From assembly GCA_964012805.1 (NCBI GenBank), contig CAXGUD010000069.1, positions 1-14,757 on the forward strand: DNA of 14,757 bases, in the 5' to 3' direction. Of the stretch, positions 7,059-14,757 are shown one piece after another; position 1 is the first letter of the stretch, and each line of letters starts with the position of its first letter. This stretch comes from an uncultured Bacteriovoracaceae bacterium (lineage in GTDB: Bacteria; Bdellovibrionota; Bacteriovoracia; Bacteriovoracales; Bacteriovoracaceae). The translations under genes were made by a program, and so were the position numbers. The notes beneath the pieces were generated by a model, which was not told the origin of the DNA, ran no database searches, and was given only the letters and a program-made list of their open reading frames with translations.

Positions 7059-9032
7059 ATGACTATAAAATTATTCCAATCAAATTTTGGATGGCTTACC
7101 TTTCTTTTAATAATAATCGATAGCTTTCTTTCATCGTCACTTAAAGCAAGTGAAAATATCCCCTTATCAACTCGAATTTTTCAAGCAACAAAGTCATATA
7201 AGAGTTATTCTGACACTATCTTTGTTGATGGACTGGGAAGAGAAGTCTACTTTAGAGGTTGGAATATTTCAGGAGCCGTTAAGTTAAAATCAATGGGTTT
7301 TAAACCTTTTAAAACGCAAAAAGATGCTGCCTGGGCCCTTCAAGACCTAAAAAGAAAAACAGGTTCAAATATTATCCGGTACACTCTAAGCTGGGAAGGA
7401 GTTCATCCACAGGTTGATACTATCGATATCGGATATCTTGAAGAAATCACTTTCCATATAAAAGAGGCCATCAAAAATAAAATTTACGTCCTTCTTGACT
7501 ACCATCAAGATCTTTACTCAAGACACCTCTTCCACAAAAACTCCAAATTTACTGGTAATGGGGCCCCCGCATGGGTTACACCTAAAGAAAACTACCCAAA
7601 TGGAACATGCTTTCTTTGTGTTCACTGGGGAATGAATAAAATTTTTAATAAATCGGTCAGGTTGGCCTTTAGGAATTTTTGGGATAATGCCCCTATTGAA
7701 ACTCAAAAAGGGGTTCGTCATGTGCAAGATGAATTTTTCTGGCAAATGAAAGAAGTTATTGCTCATTTAAAAAGAAACCTCAATGAAAAAGAACAAAATT
7801 TTATCATTGGCATCAACCCAATGAATGAACCCATCGACGGAGGCTTTGGTAAACTTTCAAGTCAAAAATGGTATTCTCAAAAGATGAGACCCTTTAACAA
7901 ACGTGTCCGCGACCTGCTTGATGAAATGGGTTGGGAACAATCCTTTGTTTTTGCAGAGCCACTCGTCTTTTGGATAACTAACGCTCCTACGATACCTGCT
8001 AACCCTCCCTTTAATAAGCAGGATCCACCACTAAAAGGTTTTGTTTTTAACTCCCACTACTATGATGCTCAAAGAATGAGCTTCTCACATAAAACTGTTA
8101 AAAATGGAAGTTATTTGGCCAATACAGATCATATCAAAAGTACCGCGGCAAAACTCAAGCGCCCTCCTTTTCTCAGTGAGTTTGGTATGTTCATAAAAAA
8201 AGGAAGAGTACAAAACCAAGTTCGCATGATTGAAGCTACTTACCAGGGCATGGAAATATCCAAAGAGCAGTCCTCTTCCTTTGCCTCTTTTTACTCACCT
8301 GTCATTTCAGGAACTCAGTGGCATTGGGATATCTATCATAATCAGCATAGAGAATTACAAAATGAAAACCCCAATAGGGTCATCACAGAAGGGGATGCTT
8401 GGAACAATGAAAATTTTTCCATTGTTACAGATGGAGGATTTAAATATACAACCCCAGATCAATTTAGTGTTGAAAGGGCCTGGCCTCGAAGGTGTCAAGG
8501 AAGAATCATGCACTTTTACTATAAGGGAAGACCTGATGATGGAAGAAATGGTCGCATTAACTGGATTGCAATGAAGTTTTCTCCACAAGGTCCTTTGTAC
8601 CTAAAAGACCACGATTTTTTCTTCATGGTCTGGCAAGGAAACAAGGCCCTCGGTCCGACTGAAATTTATTTACCACCTCACTTTAGGAAAAGGTCTCTGA
8701 CAGTCATGACAGAGCAAATAATCAAAAAAGGTTTAGGGAGGCAATCTAAACCAAAGCAGCACGTTTTTTCACTCCCCGATATTCTTCCCGTTTCTCCTAA
8801 AACAGGAGAAAGAGTTTTTATTTGGAACCAAGACAAAATAAAGGGTCAACTTCATTTCTTTTTGGCCATTAAGGAAAATAAAGAGCATCCACTAGATAAA
8901 AAAAGTTTAAAAATTCTTCAGCAAAGTATCAAAAAGACCATAAAGAAACACCAGAGCCCTCTTTTCTTCAGAGGTAAAGTTAAGATTGATAAAGTTCATG
9001 TGGGAAGAAAATCGATTCGATTTAAATATTAA
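7059..9032 (+). CDS. Glycoside hydrolase family 5, endoglycoceramidase/glycosylceramidase-like, probably secreted
   Basis: 657 aa. FVDGLGREVYFRGWN, LLDYHQDLYS, GNGAPAW, MNEP (acid/base Glu), FNSHYY, FLSEFG (nucleophile Glu), GTQWHW and RAWPR leading into a C-terminal beta domain. The N-terminus is hydrophobic and ends in LKA/SE. Confidence 0.85.
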   Translation: MTIKLFQSNFGWLTFLLIIIDSFLSSSLKASENIPLSTRIFQATKSYKSYSDTIFVDGLGREVYFRGWNISGAVKLKSMGFKPFKTQKDAAWALQDLKRKTGSNIIRYTLSWEGVHPQVDTIDIGYLEEITFHIKEAIKNKIYVLLDYHQDLYSRHLFHKNSKFTGNGAPAWVTPKENYPNGTCFLCVHWGMNKIFNKSVRLAFRNFWDNAPIETQKGVRHVQDEFFWQMKEVIAHLKRNLNEKEQNFIIGINPMNEPIDGGFGKLSSQKWYSQKMRPFNKRVRDLLDEMGWEQSFVFAEPLVFWITNAPTIPANPPFNKQDPPLKGFVFNSHYYDAQRMSFSHKTVKNGSYLANTDHIKSTAAKLKRPPFLSEFGMFIKKGRVQNQVRMIEATYQGMEISKEQSSSFASFYSPVISGTQWHWDIYHNQHRELQNENPNRVITEGDAWNNENFSIVTDGGFKYTTPDQFSVERAWPRRCQGRIMHFYYKGRPDDGRNGRINWIAMKFSPQGPLYLKDHDFFFMVWQGNKALGPTEIYLPPHFRKRSLTVMTEQIIKKGLGRQSKPKQHVFSLPDILPVSPKTGERVFIWNQDKIKGQLHFFLAIKENKEHPLDKKSLKILQQSIKKTIKKHQSPLFFRGKVKIDKVHVGRKSIRFKY

Positions 9033-9187: not shown

Positions 9188-12100
9188 ATGAAAAAAGGAA
9201 ATTGGAACATAGTTAACAATTTGATAACTTTGAGGAATTTTTTATCCTCTGCTGCATTCCTTTTTCTTCTTCTCGGACTTTCTTCTTGCGGGCAAAAAGT
9301 CAAAGATCTTAAAAAAGCCTCACTTTCTTTTAACTTAGGAACTACTAATCAATTCCTAAAAGGTGGGGTGTACCTCTACGGTGAAGATGTTTTAGGTAAT
9401 CGTTTTTTTTCCAGAGGTATTGATGGAGGAACGACGGAATTTGAAATTGACCTTCCAGGGGGACGTTGGCGTTTTTTTGCCATAGGGTGGGAAGGTGACA
9501 ACACCATGGAGGGAATAAACCGTTGTGCCTCGGCTGGATTTGATGAGCCTATTTTTATTAATAAAGATAGAGCAGTGCCTATTACACTTAATTTTAGTAA
9601 AATGAATTGTCTTGAGAATAATACCTTTACAGCAAATCAGTATGCTTCCAGCCAAGGCCAGTTTCATAAACTTAAGTTAGTTTCTTGCATGACTTTGAAC
9701 GGAGTTTCAAGTCATACATCCAATTGTGACTATCCCCTAACAAGAATAGGTGTTGGACAATCCTACCGAGTTAGCCTAAGTGGAAAAAATATACCACCTA
9801 TGGCCTTTCAACCTGGCTTAACTTCAGAATGCATATCAAATAATGATATTACTTCTTCCCAATACCTTTCTAATTTACAACTTCCCTTTGGCGGTCTCGT
9901 CAATTTTCCACTAAAAATTACTTCTTATAGTAGCGCCAATTGTCAAGAAACAAATGAACCTGACAAGAAGCGTGAATATGAAATAATTATTGAAAACCCA
10001 CCCGTCAACGTGAAAAACTCAAGCAACCCCCTTTTAGTGTCATCAAATATTGAGCTCGAGAAGAAAAGACTTATCAAAGTAGGAGATGTTAATGGAACAA
10101 CCCGATCACACCTCTTTGTTCCAGACAATATCTTTGGTCTATCAAAAACAGTGCTTAACTCCCAAGCCCCTGAGCTCAATTGCCAATTAGGAGGAAGCCT
10201 TAGGCATTGCCTTACAAATGCCAGTAACTACAACACTGCAAGTGACGTTTATAAAGATGTTAAAAGAGTTCTTCAAAATGTTATTGGAACTCCTGATGGT
10301 CTCGAACCAGATAATAATGATAATGCCTCATCTAGAAAAACAGGACATCTTGGTGAAGCATCCTGGATTCTCTTAGGTCCTATTGGGAGCTCTCTTAGAA
10401 ATTATATAGGCGATACATGTTCGAGCCTTCCCATTTCTGGAATTAACCTTCCAAGTGAAGGAAACCTCTATACTCAAGGGTTTGATCTAAAAATGAGGGT
10501 TTATACTCCTCAAATTGAAATTCCCACCAGAATATCATCAACAACCAGTCTGGATTATAGGGTTGACCTTTATATCGACAACGACCTTGAATACGCCTTT
10601 GGCTTTCGTTGCGACAATCAAACAGGTTGGATGAGGAATAAAAGTGACGGAGGTAATGATAGCCGCTCTATAGAAATCTTTTACAATACGGCAGATCTTA
10701 ACAGTAGTAGTTTCGATTTCTACGGACTCGAGCTTTATAATTATGAAGGAAACAACTACCGCTCTAAAACTGCCCTCCAATTTAAGAAAACAACAGCTGA
10801 TTCTTACTTAGGCCATATAACCAAGACAACCTTTAATTTGAGTACAGGGAATTACACTCATGTTGCTCGATATACGGTAAAAAGTGACATTTCAGATAAT
10901 CGCATGAGGATTTATCATTTTCAGGATGAGGACAATTATCCTGATGAGGATAATTCCTTTCTTACCTGTAGCTCTGACAATTGTACAAGTTATTGCTTTA
11001 CACAAGCAGGAGATGCAGCATCTTCGGGTTGTCCTACAATTTCAGGCAGCGGTGATGAAGTTAAAACACCCGCCCTCGAAACAATAGAAGACTTATCAAC
11101 AGAGTCCATCGATGCAGGTCTTGGAGATGGTAAGGAATGGAATGATTTAACTCCACTCACCGGGGATAGCTCTTATAACAAAGCACCTAAGTTAAACTTG
11201 ACCTCAAAGAGCATGTTTGTTGGAACTTCTTACGGTGATGATAATCCCGCTTTTGATATCAATGACGCAAATACTGGGAATGACTTTGACCAGGGTAATA
11301 ACGATGTTACTTATCAGTGTGAGTACAAAGATACATATTCAAAAACAAATAATTTAGCTTCTGGTCTATCGGCCTTTAGTAGCTCAACCACTCAAACCAA
11401 TGATTCCTTAAGCCTTTCCAAAGTTTACTCTGTTTTTTATGCACACAAAGCTTCCGCGATAGGATCTTCTACGGCTTATGTAAGACTTTATGATGATGAC
11501 AATTCTTCCAATCACACAAATCAACTAAGTACAAGTCTTTCTAATTATCAAACCGTTGGTCGCATAAGTATTTTGAGCTCTCTTAGCACAGTTGAAAAAT
11601 TTGTCCTCACTTCATCAAATAGCACTTCTATTGATCCAAAGGCCCTTTATTTTTATTATAAAAATACGTCCACTAACTTTAGTGACTGCTCCAATATCCC
11701 AGGTATGACTTTTGATTCAAACAATGGTCGATTCACTGGAACTCCAACAGAGCAAAACCTCTATAAGGTTTACATTACGGCAAATAATGGAACATCGAAA
11801 AGAAGATCTTCCTTTTCTCTCTCATCCTTTAAAAACCCCACATCCTTTTCTTTCCAAGACGCTGGTCCTACTATCAGGGCCAGTGGAAACCTGATTGGAG
11901 ATAAAATAACTTTGTATAGCAATAGCTCTTGCTCAAGTTCACTTGGTAGTAATGCGACTCCTAATAGCACGGATGGTTATGTCGACATTGAAATAAGTAC
12001 TCCCTCAAGTAACACGACTCTTTACTATAAAAAGACAACTCCAGAAGGAATGGAAGGAAGTTGCTTAACAACCGGTCTTAACTTTGTAAGCGTTACAGCG

Positions 12101-14757
12101 CCATCTCTTTATAGGGACTCATCTCTAAATGAGTACGATAACAATACCACTGTCAAAATTGATACCGTTATTTTTTACCCCAATGGCAGTGGCTCTCTTT
12201 CAAATGTAAAAATTTATAAAGACAGTAACTGTTCAGATAACAACCTCGTTGCCTCTCTAGACAATCCCACTTCAACGGCTCATGAGTTTTCAATTGACTT
12301 ATCATCATATGGAGATGGCCAATATAATTTTTATGGAAAATCAACATCAACTCAGGGGATTTCTTCAGCGTGTTCATCATCAGGAGTCAGCTATAATCTT
12401 GATACCGTTCCGCCATCAAGTCCACAAACTAGTAATAATGGCCAAGAAGGCTATTTAGAACTTCCAAGCTATTATTCAGTACCTGACAATTTAACCACTC
12501 CCTACGTAAGAGTTTATAACCTAGACTACAAGGATAAGATTAAACTTTACAGTGACTCATCTTGCTCAACAGAAGTGAGTTTGAGTAGTGCTAACGACAC
12601 CTACTTTGGTGGCACCTACCTTATTACTACTGCTAATTTCCCAACCAATGGTCAAACAGTTCATAATCAACCTATTAGTTTCCCTATCTACGCAAAACGC
12701 TGGGATAGGCATGGCAATAGCTCGTCTTGCTCATCTAACTTTCTCACTTATCAATTGGATACAATGGCACCACCAGAGCCAACGGATTCCCAAGTCACTC
12801 TGAGTAATCCATCGTCAAGCCCTGGTACCGACTCCACCCCAACCTTAAGAGTCGATGGGTTGACTGCAGGGGATACAGTTTATGTCTACAATGATGCAAG
12901 TTGTGGAAGTTATATTGGTACAGCACAGGTTCCGAGTGGAGAAACTCATGCTCTTGTTACCACCACGACACTTCTTAGAGGCTCCCATAACTTAAAAGTG
13001 AAAGTTAAAGATATTGCTGGAAACATGTCCGACTGCCCATCGTCTGCCCAGGAAACTTATTTTTACAAATTAAGTGACAGCTTGGATTACTCTTATCACA
13101 ATATAGGGATTAGCCTAGTTTACCCAAGCCACACGCCTTACAATGTCGACACTCCTAAAATACAAGTAACAAAACTTGTTGCAGGGGATACAGTCAATAT
13201 CTATACAGACTCTAACTGTACTACATCCACCGGTTCTCCCTATACAGTAGGCTCCAGCGTAAGTGGTCTCCATACCTCCAATCAGATTCCAGTAACTGCC
13301 ATCTCAACTGAAGGAAACCATACTTTCTATGTTAAAGTGACAGACTCTCAGGGCCATACTTCTTCTGGATCGGGAGTTTGTTATGACTCACAAACTATAC
13401 CTTATGAATATGATACGACAGATCCTAATTTGACAAATATTAGCTTTACACGCACTAATCCAACTAACGAAGAAGGCCCAAGATTTTATCCATGGTTTAA
13501 AATTTCTGGAGTTCCTGAAATGAGCGAAGTCTCATTATGGACGAGTAATGATTGTCAGAGTGGTAGGATGAGCAATTTTATTAATGTTGGTGGCAACGAT
13601 CATACGGCCACAACTGATGTCGATATTTCAACCTATAAACTCAATACACAAAGAGAATGGACATTCTGGGTTAAGGTTAAAGAACGTGCTCAAAATACAA
13701 GCTGCAGCTCAATTTCTATCCCTTATTACAGAACGCCTGACTATTATGGACATTGGCACCCAAGCCATGTGCGGTTAAGCTCTTCTAACTCTGGTGGCAT
13801 GTCAAATAATAGAACTCCGCAGTTTAAAATTGATAACTGGAATTACGGAAGGTTCATCCAAGGTGATACGGCTTATGTTTATTCAGATAGCAATTGTAGT
13901 AATTTATTGGCAGAAACTACTACATTGACCGAATCCTATAGGGCCGTGCTAAATATTCCGTCAATATCAACAGACGGGCAACATGAGTTCTATTTTAGGG
14001 TTAAAGACAGTAGAGGAAACTTGTCAAATTGCCCAAGTAGCCCTCAAGAAACATACAGACTCGATACAGTGGCCCCTGCCGAACCAACCTCAGATGATGT
14101 TACCTTTGTTGGCTTCTCATCAAGCCCTAATATCTACCATCAACCAACAATAAGAATTGGTGGACTTTCAGGTTATAATTCAAATTCAGACTATTATTAT
14201 GCTCGTGTTTATAAAGACAATCAATGTACTCAATCAGTATCTGGTTCCTATGGGGGATCCTCTGGAGCCTCTCATATAGATATCTCCCTTTACGCTCTCA
14301 ATGAAGGAACAACGGACTTCTATATCAGGGTTTATGATAGATCTGGCAATTGGAGCAATTGCCCAAGCTCTCCTCAAATTTCCTATGAATATATAAAAGA
14401 CCCTGAGAACAGTGACATCTCATTCATTGATCCAAGTTCCTCTCCTAGTACCGATACAACTCCAACGGTCCGAATCGGTGGATTAGGAACAAGTGAAGTT
14501 ATTAAGGTCTACAACGCTTCTGGCTGCTCTTCTTCAAACCTTGTGGGAACCTCAAGCTCTTCGACAAGCTCCGGACAGGTGGACATTACTCTCAGTGCAC
14601 TAAATCAGGGAGTCAACTCCCTTTACTTTACAAAAACAAAGGGAAGTGCAACAACAGCTTGTCCATCTTCAGCTCAAGCAAGTTATACAGTTATTCCACC
14701 AACTCCAACAGGAGTAAGTCTTAGTTCGCCCACAAGCTCTCCAGGTCTTGATAAGAA
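9188..14757 (+). CDS. Giant lipoprotein with putative-Ig/cadherin-like domain and tandem Cys-paired Ig-like repeats (probable surface adhesin); 3'-truncated
   Basis: Manual translation of frame +2 from ATG 9188 finds no stop before the window end (1856 full codons). Signal ...AAFLFLLLGLSS/C with lipobox Cys at 9287-9289. Ser/Thr/Asn-rich composition. IPGMTFDSNNGRFTGTP putative-Ig motif near 11696-11748. Repeated Y-x-D-x-x-C ... D-x-x-GN-x-S-x-C ... Y-x-LDT-x-x-P units. TTG 9221 or 9230 are alternative starts. Confidence 0.9.
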   Translation, partial: MKKGNWNIVNNLITLRNFLSSAAFLFLLLGLSSCGQKVKDLKKASLSFNLGTTNQFLKGGVYLYGEDVLGNRFFSRGIDGGTTEFEIDLPGGRWRFFAIGWEGDNTMEGINRCASAGFDEPIFINKDRAVPITLNFSKMNCLENNTFTANQYASSQGQFHKLKLVSCMTLNGVSSHTSNCDYPLTRIGVGQSYRVSLSGKNIPPMAFQPGLTSECISNNDITSSQYLSNLQLPFGGLVNFPLKITSYSSANCQETNEPDKKREYEIIIENPPVNVKNSSNPLLVSSNIELEKKRLIKVGDVNGTTRSHLFVPDNIFGLSKTVLNSQAPELNCQLGGSLRHCLTNASNYNTASDVYKDVKRVLQNVIGTPDGLEPDNNDNASSRKTGHLGEASWILLGPIGSSLRNYIGDTCSSLPISGINLPSEGNLYTQGFDLKMRVYTPQIEIPTRISSTTSLDYRVDLYIDNDLEYAFGFRCDNQTGWMRNKSDGGNDSRSIEIFYNTADLNSSSFDFYGLELYNYEGNNYRSKTALQFKKTTADSYLGHITKTTFNLSTGNYTHVARYTVKSDISDNRMRIYHFQDEDNYPDEDNSFLTCSSDNCTSYCFTQAGDAASSGCPTISGSGDEVKTPALETIEDLSTESIDAGLGDGKEWNDLTPLTGDSSYNKAPKLNLTSKSMFVGTSYGDDNPAFDINDANTGNDFDQGNNDVTYQCEYKDTYSKTNNLASGLSAFSSSTTQTNDSLSLSKVYSVFYAHKASAIGSSTAYVRLYDDDNSSNHTNQLSTSLSNYQTVGRISILSSLSTVEKFVLTSSNSTSIDPKALYFYYKNTSTNFSDCSNIPGMTFDSNNGRFTGTPTEQNLYKVYITANNGTSKRRSSFSLSSFKNPTSFSFQDAGPTIRASGNLIGDKITLYSNSSCSSSLGSNATPNSTDGYVDIEISTPSSNTTLYYKKTTPEGMEGSCLTTGLNFVSVTAPSLYRDSSLNEYDNNTTVKIDTVIFYPNGSGSLSNVKIYKDSNCSDNNLVASLDNPTSTAHEFSIDLSSYGDGQYNFYGKSTSTQGISSACSSSGVSYNLDTVPPSSPQTSNNGQEGYLELPSYYSVPDNLTTPYVRVYNLDYKDKIKLYSDSSCSTEVSLSSANDTYFGGTYLITTANFPTNGQTVHNQPISFPIYAKRWDRHGNSSSCSSNFLTYQLDTMAPPEPTDSQVTLSNPSSSPGTDSTPTLRVDGLTAGDTVYVYNDASCGSYIGTAQVPSGETHALVTTTTLLRGSHNLKVKVKDIAGNMSDCPSSAQETYFYKLSDSLDYSYHNIGISLVYPSHTPYNVDTPKIQVTKLVAGDTVNIYTDSNCTTSTGSPYTVGSSVSGLHTSNQIPVTAISTEGNHTFYVKVTDSQGHTSSGSGVCYDSQTIPYEYDTTDPNLTNISFTRTNPTNEEGPRFYPWFKISGVPEMSEVSLWTSNDCQSGRMSNFINVGGNDHTATTDVDISTYKLNTQREWTFWVKVKERAQNTSCSSISIPYYRTPDYYGHWHPSHVRLSSSNSGGMSNNRTPQFKIDNWNYGRFIQGDTAYVYSDSNCSNLLAETTTLTESYRAVLNIPSISTDGQHEFYFRVKDSRGNLSNCPSSPQETYRLDTVAPAEPTSDDVTFVGFSSSPNIYHQPTIRIGGLSGYNSNSDYYYARVYKDNQCTQSVSGSYGGSSGASHIDISLYALNEGTTDFYIRVYDRSGNWSNCPSSPQISYEYIKDPENSDISFIDPSSSPSTDTTPTVRIGGLGTSEVIKVYNASGCSSSNLVGTSSSSTSSGQVDITLSALNQGVNSLYFTKTKGSATTACPSSAQASYTVIPPTPTGVSLSSPTSSPGLDK
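11830..14757 (+). repeat. Array of nine complete plus one partial divergent Ig-like protein repeats within the giant ORF
   Basis: First-Cys codons at 11930, 12230, 12563, 12902, 13217, 13553, 13895, 14225 and 14525 (spacing 100-114 codons). Second-Cys codons at 12062, 12371, 12728, 13034, 13379, 13703, 14030, 14360 and 14660. Confidence 0.85.

Follow-up and report, generated by a model that had tools for sequence, protein, structure and literature searches.

Giant adhesins of the repeats-in-toxin (RTX) type, such as LapA and MpAFP, are exported by type I secretion systems (T1SS) and carry distal ligand domains on a stalk of immunoglobulin (Ig)-like domains; they contain RTX nonapeptides and have no N-terminal signal peptide. 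In Leptospira, LigA and LigB are described as proteins with a lipoprotein signal and a dozen tandem Ig-like domains, which act as Lol-dependent, elongated surface adhesins (PMC7821625). The predator Bdellovibrio, of the phylum Bdellovibrionota, has the lipobox adhesins Bd0875 and Bd1483, reported with a surface-exposed C-terminus (PMC11003981), as well as mosaic adhesive trimer (MAT) fibres, in which a constant cell-proximal N-terminal domain is combined with swappable, often lectin-like tips in the account of PMC10769870. F-type lectins, among them eel agglutinin (AAA), striped bass FBP32 and the pneumococcal SP2159 modules, form a further point of comparison (PMC5712786). Here we describe a gene that begins in a 14,757-nt stretch of DNA from an uncultured Bacteriovoracaceae bacterium (the window, which is the entire contig C69, CAXGUD010000069.1, of assembly GCA_964012805.1) and encodes a 2,606-aa lipoprotein with an N-terminal base module (the N-module), a stalk of Ig-like repeats and an F-type-lectin-like domain near its tip.

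The comparison with these systems showed both likenesses and differences. The Lig domains are Cys-free in the published description (PMC7821625), whereas each Big_13-like repeat of the present protein contains a Cys pair, and no Big_2 match was obtained here; that source presents no comparable base module and no F-type lectin/propeller tip. Bd0875 and Bd1483 have a vWA/MIDAS fold without a long Ig stalk according to PMC11003981, and no vWA match was found in our protein. The MATs are presented in PMC10769870 as trimeric and phage-tail-like, many with S74, while the protein studied here has a lipobox and Ig repeats, no S74 and no PHROG match over five segments. It resembles the RTX adhesins in its giant tandem Ig-like stalk with distal ligand-binding domains and in a weak match to the Ca_tandemer repeat (17.8 bits against a cut-off of 50). 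It differs from them by an N-terminal lipoprotein signal and Cys pairs, and no RTX nonapeptides (0 GGxGxD-type motifs) were present in either part of the protein; the preliminary description of the window had already set it apart from typical Cys-poor RTX adhesins. The same description took the overall plan to be more novel than it is, given the precedents in Leptospira LigA/B and Bdellovibrio Bd0875; it is the base module that appears new.

Based on the predicted architecture, we consider it slightly more probable than not (roughly 0.55) that the product is an outer-membrane-anchored, monomeric lipoprotein stalk adhesin, with fucose-containing glycans as its likely ligands and prey as their most likely source. 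Its N-module is an apparently undescribed module that likely displays many different sticky tips.

Reading frame and assembly continuity

The preliminary description had pointed to a long open frame missing from the list of open reading frames (ORFs). Translation of frame +2 over window positions 9188-14755 gave 1,856 codons (1,856 aa) with no stop; each of the other five frames, read over the stretch from 9188 to the end of the window, contained 86-219 stops. The last 55 bases of the window were identical to the first 55 of contig C66, and this 55-mer was absent elsewhere in the assembly, in which end overlaps of the same 55-nt kind numbered 45 in all. The frame continued on C66 (locus L001, bases 3-2306), giving the full protein of 2,606 aa. 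The join was spanned by one 2,470-nt public contig (run X3) that covered window positions 13693-14757 and C66 positions 1-1460 with one differing letter. Run X3 is not marked as a source of the assembly, and run X4, which has identical record sizes and probably represents the same data, was counted with it as one data set. Two metagenome contigs (L060 and L061) were identical to the window and stopped short of the join. The protein ends in FNKY, in agreement with 89 of the 120 listed propeller homologs, which terminate in N-K-[F/Y/L], so we regard this as its natural C-terminus. Extension onto C66 recovered that C-terminus on a longer rod and, where the preliminary description had placed a distal tip outside the window, an F-type-lectin-like domain and a terminal propeller. 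A promoter scan remained at chance level.

Export signal and disulfide-containing stalk

The signal peptide has a basic n-region and a hydrophobic h-region at residues 19-31 (mean hydropathy 2.31), with no further transmembrane-like stretch. The lipobox previously read as LSS/C was present, and its Cys column was nearly invariant in a 95-sequence alignment of the N-module family. A permissive pattern detected a lipobox in 111 of the 129 family members with an intact start; position +2 held S, G or A in 108 of 112, and D in none. Delivery by Lol is predicted from this signal, with the +2 sorting rule, and from the genes present. The genes for LspA, LolA and DsbB were found in the host genome, which supports the proposed Sec/Dsb/Lol route, along which the protein would be exported.

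Beyond C34, the window part contains 14 Cys at residues 113-615, two at 711 and 834, and nine pairs (915/959 to 1780/1825), exactly the sets of 14, 2 and 2 per repeat that had been counted before. Full disulfide pairing, proposed from these even sets, would not extend to the whole protein: it has 42 Cys, of which C34 is the lipid site and C2434, in the propeller, has no partner. Residues ~666-880 matched He_PIG above the cut-off. The two Cys of this domain are 123 residues apart, compared with 11-19 in seven pattern-matched repeats of a paralog on contig C55, which indicates that the domain is split by an insert of ~110 aa, as in the split cadherin/putative-Ig domain of the preliminary description. 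The insert also occurs in the same-genus ortholog (L014). The C55 paralog itself (L003 6323-19939, genome G000) is open at its 5' end and at least 4,538 aa long. Besides numerous He_PIG repeats with two Cys each, it contains TIG, LamG, ricin-like and Cys-rich segments as well as three disulfide Ig repeats of the kind found in the window protein, and a DsbA-like gene adjoins it.

When aligned on the Cys pair, the nine Ig-like repeats of the window had a period of 99-114 aa and a mutual identity of 16-43%, and one of them passed the Big_13 cut-off. The whole protein has 11 such repeats, in keeping with the "nine or more" expected from the window. The same disulfide Ig repeats were also seen in a 1,657-aa frame of another genome (L094, G282 contig C217), together with two discoidin-like domains without the R-x-D-C-C motif.

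Distal lectin-like domain and propeller

The lectin-like domain matched five solved F-type lectin sequences with E values of 2e-8 to 4e-6, and eel agglutinin with 4e-4. The cation motif h2DGx was kept as A-I-D-G-D (residues 1965-1969), and the R-x-D-x4-R/K motif with vicinal Cys as R2006-T-D-C-C-K-S-R2013 (R-x-D-C-C-x-x-R). In AAA, the cation motif, Arg79/Arg86 and the vicinal Cys82-Cys83 are the described elements (PMC5712786). Judged by these motifs, the domain near the end of the 2,606-aa lipoprotein is a probable fucose-binding lectin.

The propeller that follows comprises seven repeats, six recognised by pattern and one by eye. Of 7,993 scored candidates, 803 were homologs at E<=1e-10; most of these are unnamed or annotated as DUF6923. 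This APNGKIY-repeat propeller (L001 1158-2303, P0157-P0276) was also observed on Ig-containing proteins of Leptospiraceae and others. The lectin and the propeller each matched one of 150 other family genomes, which fits exchangeable tips. In the same-genus ortholog (genome G002), residues 33-1219 are shared at 34% identity and are followed by a fibrinogen-like domain. On a separate G002 contig, Ig repeats are followed by an unassigned domain that differs from the lectin whose place it takes, and then by an Ig repeat and the same propeller; this contig is probably the end of that ortholog.

The N-module and its family

The preliminary description had left ~630 aa between the lipobox and the putative-Ig domain unassigned. 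The N-module indeed had no library match; the region as a whole resolved into two conserved domains, and the large, lineage-restricted family represented by the N-terminal ~280 aa had been missed. No match to the N-module was obtained in Pfam, in NCBIfam (searched with the whole window protein), in PHROGs or among PDB sequences (searched with a 16-sequence profile). A search with residues 34-664 against 1.84 billion representatives found 219 proteins, and most of the best 150 of these matched only the first ~220 residues. The lipobox Cys and five further Cys were invariant or nearly so in the 95-sequence alignment. The stand-alone members (270-330 aa) finish with a hydrophobic strand, which corresponds in the alignment to residues ~305-312 of the window protein, and the N-module was therefore set at 35-312.

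The family is concentrated in the host family. When 20 proteins were looked up, the three with a source organism name were Halobacteriovorax proteins. A profile search of 250 genomes detected the N-module in 45 of the 51 host-family genomes, in all six of family f23 and in a single additional genome; the remaining ones had none once two weak family f9 matches outside the N-module (profile positions 327-441) had been dropped. The N-module usually occurs in several copies per host-family genome, with different tips; about five candidates were scored per genome, so the copy numbers are lower bounds, and related genomes are not independent. In family f23 (loci L040-L048), the N-module was observed mostly as a stand-alone lipoprotein of 280-350 aa, often ending in K-D-F, in up to five copies per genome and in unrelated neighbourhoods.

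Among the best 150 representatives, 52 were chosen for length and scanned against Pfam. Eighteen of the 52 had a match, in all cases C-terminal of the N-module and never inside it. The kinds of cargo included RCC1, Kelch and DUF5122 propellers, LamG, DUF285, GLUG, TIG, Lcl_C, He_PIG and Big_13. Further searches returned little: a word-indexed search with alignment A3 found only four proteins, a genome-contig scan for the N-module gave no match, the ESM Atlas held no model of a homologue and no match at 0.9 or more, and a viral fold library returned one marginal match (TM 0.24), which was not used.

The AlphaFold model of residues 35-262 (mean pLDDT 91.7) consists of two beta subdomains, the first of which is transthyretin-like. 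The second conserved domain of the region, Domain 2 (model pLDDT 77), was present in 37 of the best 150 representatives. Foldseek found no match to it at E<=0.001, and VIA-align returned only outer-membrane barrels (rmsd 3.4-8, best Z 9.1) with no specific match; such an absence of matches to a predicted model does not make Domain 2 a new fold. A membrane barrel was considered and rejected, as the strands are polar and no transmembrane-like stretch is present. A paralog of 846 aa on contig C2 (L002 8243-10783) retains the two N-terminal domains, and its C-terminal end is a small domain rich in Cys. It is preceded by three small outer-membrane-barrel-like genes (L002 5789-7582), one of them with a weak OMP_b-brl match.

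Our literature search, which left most subscription papers outside its reach, found no paper on the N-module and none on adhesins of the Halobacteriovorax/Bacteriovorax family. A term search of the main texts of PMC11656739 and PMC12827227 gave nothing on the N-module family; their supplements may list members as lineage-specific clusters. As a family-wide base, the N-module thus appears to be new.

Short family members and fibre genes

Eleven lipoproteins of ~150 aa, composed of the first subdomain and a W-D-x-A-x-W-D tail, were examined. Eight of them, from six genera, adjoin a gene whose product starts with F..G..IS....N..F (seven upstream on the same strand, one convergent); among the other three loci, two had no such neighbour and one lay on too short a contig. 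Two of the eight neighbours gave S74 and phage tail fibre matches; the one other neighbour that was scanned had no PHROG match, so for all six apart from those two the fibre label derives from the shared motif. Three members of 333-345 aa from one genus (L049 859-1857, L050 6207-7217, L079 850-1884) have three S-Y-rich terminal strands. They were observed directly upstream of what we take, from a motif, to be MAT-like genes, at one orthologous locus. The one of these three neighbours that was scanned matched tail-fibre PHROGs. Two other short lipoproteins (G000 C109 2534-3052 and C4 49378-49881; L036, L037) combine the first subdomain with a Cys-containing tail and have neither the W-D motif nor a fibre-type neighbour. 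The window protein has no W-D tail, so the fibre pairing concerns the N-module and is of no direct bearing on the window protein itself. The host genome (100% complete) gave no match to the S74 chaperone domain; relatives have S74 fibres.

Host and genomic neighbourhood

The host RpoB was 81-83% identical to that of named Bacteriovoracaceae, including Halobacteriovorax and Bacteriovorax stolpii, and nothing else was closer than 84%. This placement agrees with the predatory host assumed in the preliminary description, predation being deduced from the family. The genome contains HMG-CoA reductase, and DXR was not found; the former without the latter is a marker of predators. Every named holder of the DNA is a metagenome of marine or seawater origin. 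The neighbours of the gene are a GH5 endoglycoceramidase-like gene and a convergent sensor kinase-like gene. Linkage to GH5 was rejected as a constant feature, as it is absent beside the same-genus ortholog (G002), the one checked. On L001, at 10003-11208, we also noted a PLP-dependent decarboxylase between fatty-acid desaturase-like genes; by its motifs it is presumably a histidine decarboxylase.

Table 1. Features of the locus, with window coordinates where these apply.
Feature	Position	Strand	Basis or remark
5' part (residues 1-1856) of the 2,606-aa lipoprotein gene	9188..14757	+	ORF and continuation on C66
Lipoprotein signal peptide and lipobox L-S-S-C34, Gly at +2	9188..9289	+	sequence
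N-module, residues 35-312, three conserved Cys pairs, conserved final strand	9290..10123	+	family alignment
Predicted transthyretin-like subdomain, ~residues 40-142	9305..9613	+	AlphaFold model, fold matches
Domain 2, ~residues 313-660, predicted helical hairpin and 12-strand antiparallel meander	10124..11167	+	predicted model
Putative-Ig domain (He_PIG, cadherin-like), Cys711/Cys834, split by insert	11183..11827	+	Pfam match, Cys spacing
~110-aa beta-rich insert in the putative-Ig domain	11336..11665	+	Cys spacing; no family match
Nine Big_13-like Ig repeats, one Cys pair each, 44-55 residues apart	11828..14698	+	Cys alignment, Big_13
55-nt overlap with the C66 start, inside the beginning of repeat 10	14703..14757	+	exact match, bridged by public contig
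Beyond the window on C66: repeat 10; F-type-lectin-like domain, ~1936-2127; repeat 11; seven-bladed propeller, ~2270-2606
GH5 endoglycoceramidase-like gene	7059-9032	+	155 bases upstream
Short-member loci L062, L063, L065, L066, L067, L069, L085/L054, L055			fibre-type N-terminal motif neighbour

Discussion

The N-terminally anchored, rod-like adhesin of the preliminary description is supported, at the level of sequence, by the lipobox, the tandem repeats and the distal tip. In the interpretation that we favour, the protein would be exported by Sec, lipidated at C34 and provided with disulfides in the periplasm, where one disulfide per Ig repeat would stiffen the stalk in place of the calcium of the RTX adhesins. 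Lol would deliver it to the outer membrane, and a separate route would then transfer it to the surface. With an Ig domain length of ~4-4.5 nm, the stalk would hold the lectin tip tens of nanometres from the cell. The N-module would serve as a constant base close to the membrane, onto which exchangeable adhesive cargo is placed within the family, a role suggested by the nearly universal base and the varied cargo.

Several observations weigh against this interpretation. The lectin-like domain may have altered or lost fucose binding: H1975 lies 30 residues before R2006, compared with the canonical spacing of 26 for His52/Arg79 of eel AAA (the review's text prints 24; PMC5712786), and HMMER puts Asp at the canonical His place, although a longer loop could plausibly accommodate a shifted His. 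The propeller belongs to an uncharacterised family, the 34 scanned family members without a Pfam match carry cargo that is only putatively adhesive, and the two G002 contigs share no exact overlap, which makes their join presumptive. Slam (PF04575) was not found in the genome by a search that was also silent in all control genomes, and no candidate for a surface translocon was identified. RNA data consisted of three contigs of 152-286 nt from a single run in which the share of words was small, which is insufficient for a claim of expression. Finally, the lifestyle of the host would have to be that of its family, as the host is uncultured, has an RpoB 81-84% identical to anything else and lacks S74.

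The strongest competitor, clearly less probable than prey binding, keeps the surface stalk adhesin and changes its target to fucose-rich algal or particle glycans, making the protein a holdfast for lying in wait on particles or biofilms. It draws on the marine or seawater origin of every named holder of the DNA, on the GH5 gene upstream on the same strand, on a tip private to this lineage and on the tendency of prokaryotic F-type domains to accompany glycoenzymes (PMC5712786). The GH5 gene is, however, missing beside the same-genus ortholog, the base module is nearly universal in a family of predators, and the tips of Bdellovibrio fibres are established as binding glycans of prey by the account in PMC10769870.

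It is rather improbable that the protein is not a displayed adhesin at all, whether periplasm-facing or shed, an envelope scaffold, or armour or a decoy against phages or grazers. The lack of an identified translocon, a Domain 2 without known fold or function, and the partial release of LigA by proteolysis described in PMC7821625 would agree with it. Against it, the variation of tips from genome to genome fits outside ligands. Eleven Ig repeats, at commonly accepted lengths, would exceed the width of the periplasm.

A still less probable reading concerns type V pilins, which are defined in PMC13655056 with the Bacteroidia as host class. In these pilins (Mfa, Fim, BACOVA_02677), as in the N-module family, a lipidated Cys is followed by a transthyretin-like sandwich and a second beta domain, and some of them have variable C-terminal adhesive additions (PMC13655056). 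The first subdomain was matched best by type V pilin N-domains, and the match took in the anchor strand: 5cag reached Z 8.7 (rmsd 2.1, 90 aligned residues), 4qdg Z 7.7-8.1 and Mfa3 Z 7.1, and 8 of the first 11 Foldseek rows were Bacteroidia pilin-type chains. The protein could accordingly be imagined as the subunit at the tip of a type V-like pilus, here in a host outside Bacteroidia. Its lipid anchor strand would be cut off, and the shaft would be a strand-exchange polymer of stand-alone N-modules; the hydrophobic terminal strand of the stand-alone members, the occurrence of tandem gene pairs and a C25 peptidase in the genome would suit such a polymer. However, the transthyretin-like fold is common and therefore weak evidence on its own, and a DUF4876 lipoprotein reached Z 8.3, tied with 5cag at a level that the tool calls common and that is near that of unrelated models. 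The whole-model TM was 0.27-0.32; the pilin matches span only model residues 4-116, in a model that ended at residue 262 without the last strands. No conserved Arg/Lys cleavage site was found in the loop after the anchor strand among 88 members, 18 of which have K or R there and three R (K58 in the window protein). The gene is solitary, with no pilin operon of stalk, anchor and tip around it; Mfa2 (PF08842) was not found in the genome by a search whose control was positive, and no stand-alone two-subdomain member occurs among the four N-module matches of the genome. The hydrophobic C-terminal strand of the stand-alone members is internal in fused members, so it is probably structural. C25 peptidases occurred in 26 of 51 host-family genomes, in one of six f23 genomes and in 33 of 34 of a family without the N-module; gingipain-type processing was rejected on this distribution, which is unlinked to the N-module, and on the unfit loop sequence. 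Independently of this question, C25 (gingipain-type) domains were seen throughout the phylum within open frames of 2,100-3,500 aa (for example G152:C1, G011:C9, G188:C9), with multiple copies in family f6. The N-module resembles a pilin base, yet the cleavage loop, the operon, the host class and the distribution of the protease do not fit, and it was not filed as a type V pilin. Further differences are the absence of sequence similarity, the disulfide-rich make-up and a second subdomain to which no match was obtained in that model.

An assembly artefact, in the long frame or in the part that continues it, is a concern with a gene split over two contigs and repetitive at the protein level. It is nearly excluded and already largely refuted by a 55-mer found only at these two contig ends, the 2,470-nt contig, from a run not marked as the source, that crosses the join with one differing letter, and repeats at most 43% identical to each other.

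As a single giant protein, the stalk adhesin that we favour would be of modest novelty. Prey recognition by predatory bacteria is largely open, and a searchable base module turns it into a concrete gene list in cultured strains, to which the window protein adds a specific, testable ligand, fucose. More tentatively, the N-module could be the general surface-display platform of the Bacteriovoracaceae predators and a distant cousin of the type V pilin base, with long members that carry their adhesins in the same chain and short members, encoded beside phage-tail-like fibre genes, that anchor those fibres in the outer membrane. The pairing of short members with fibre genes bears on the anchoring of MAT fibres, for which the anchoring element is called unidentified in PMC10769870. 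For most of the phylum's other families the search gave no N-module, which is thus not a general answer to fibre anchoring. If the platform idea is true, the N-module would be a candidate for the surface element that anchors predator fibres, and its members would constitute a family-wide, swappable arsenal for prey recognition.

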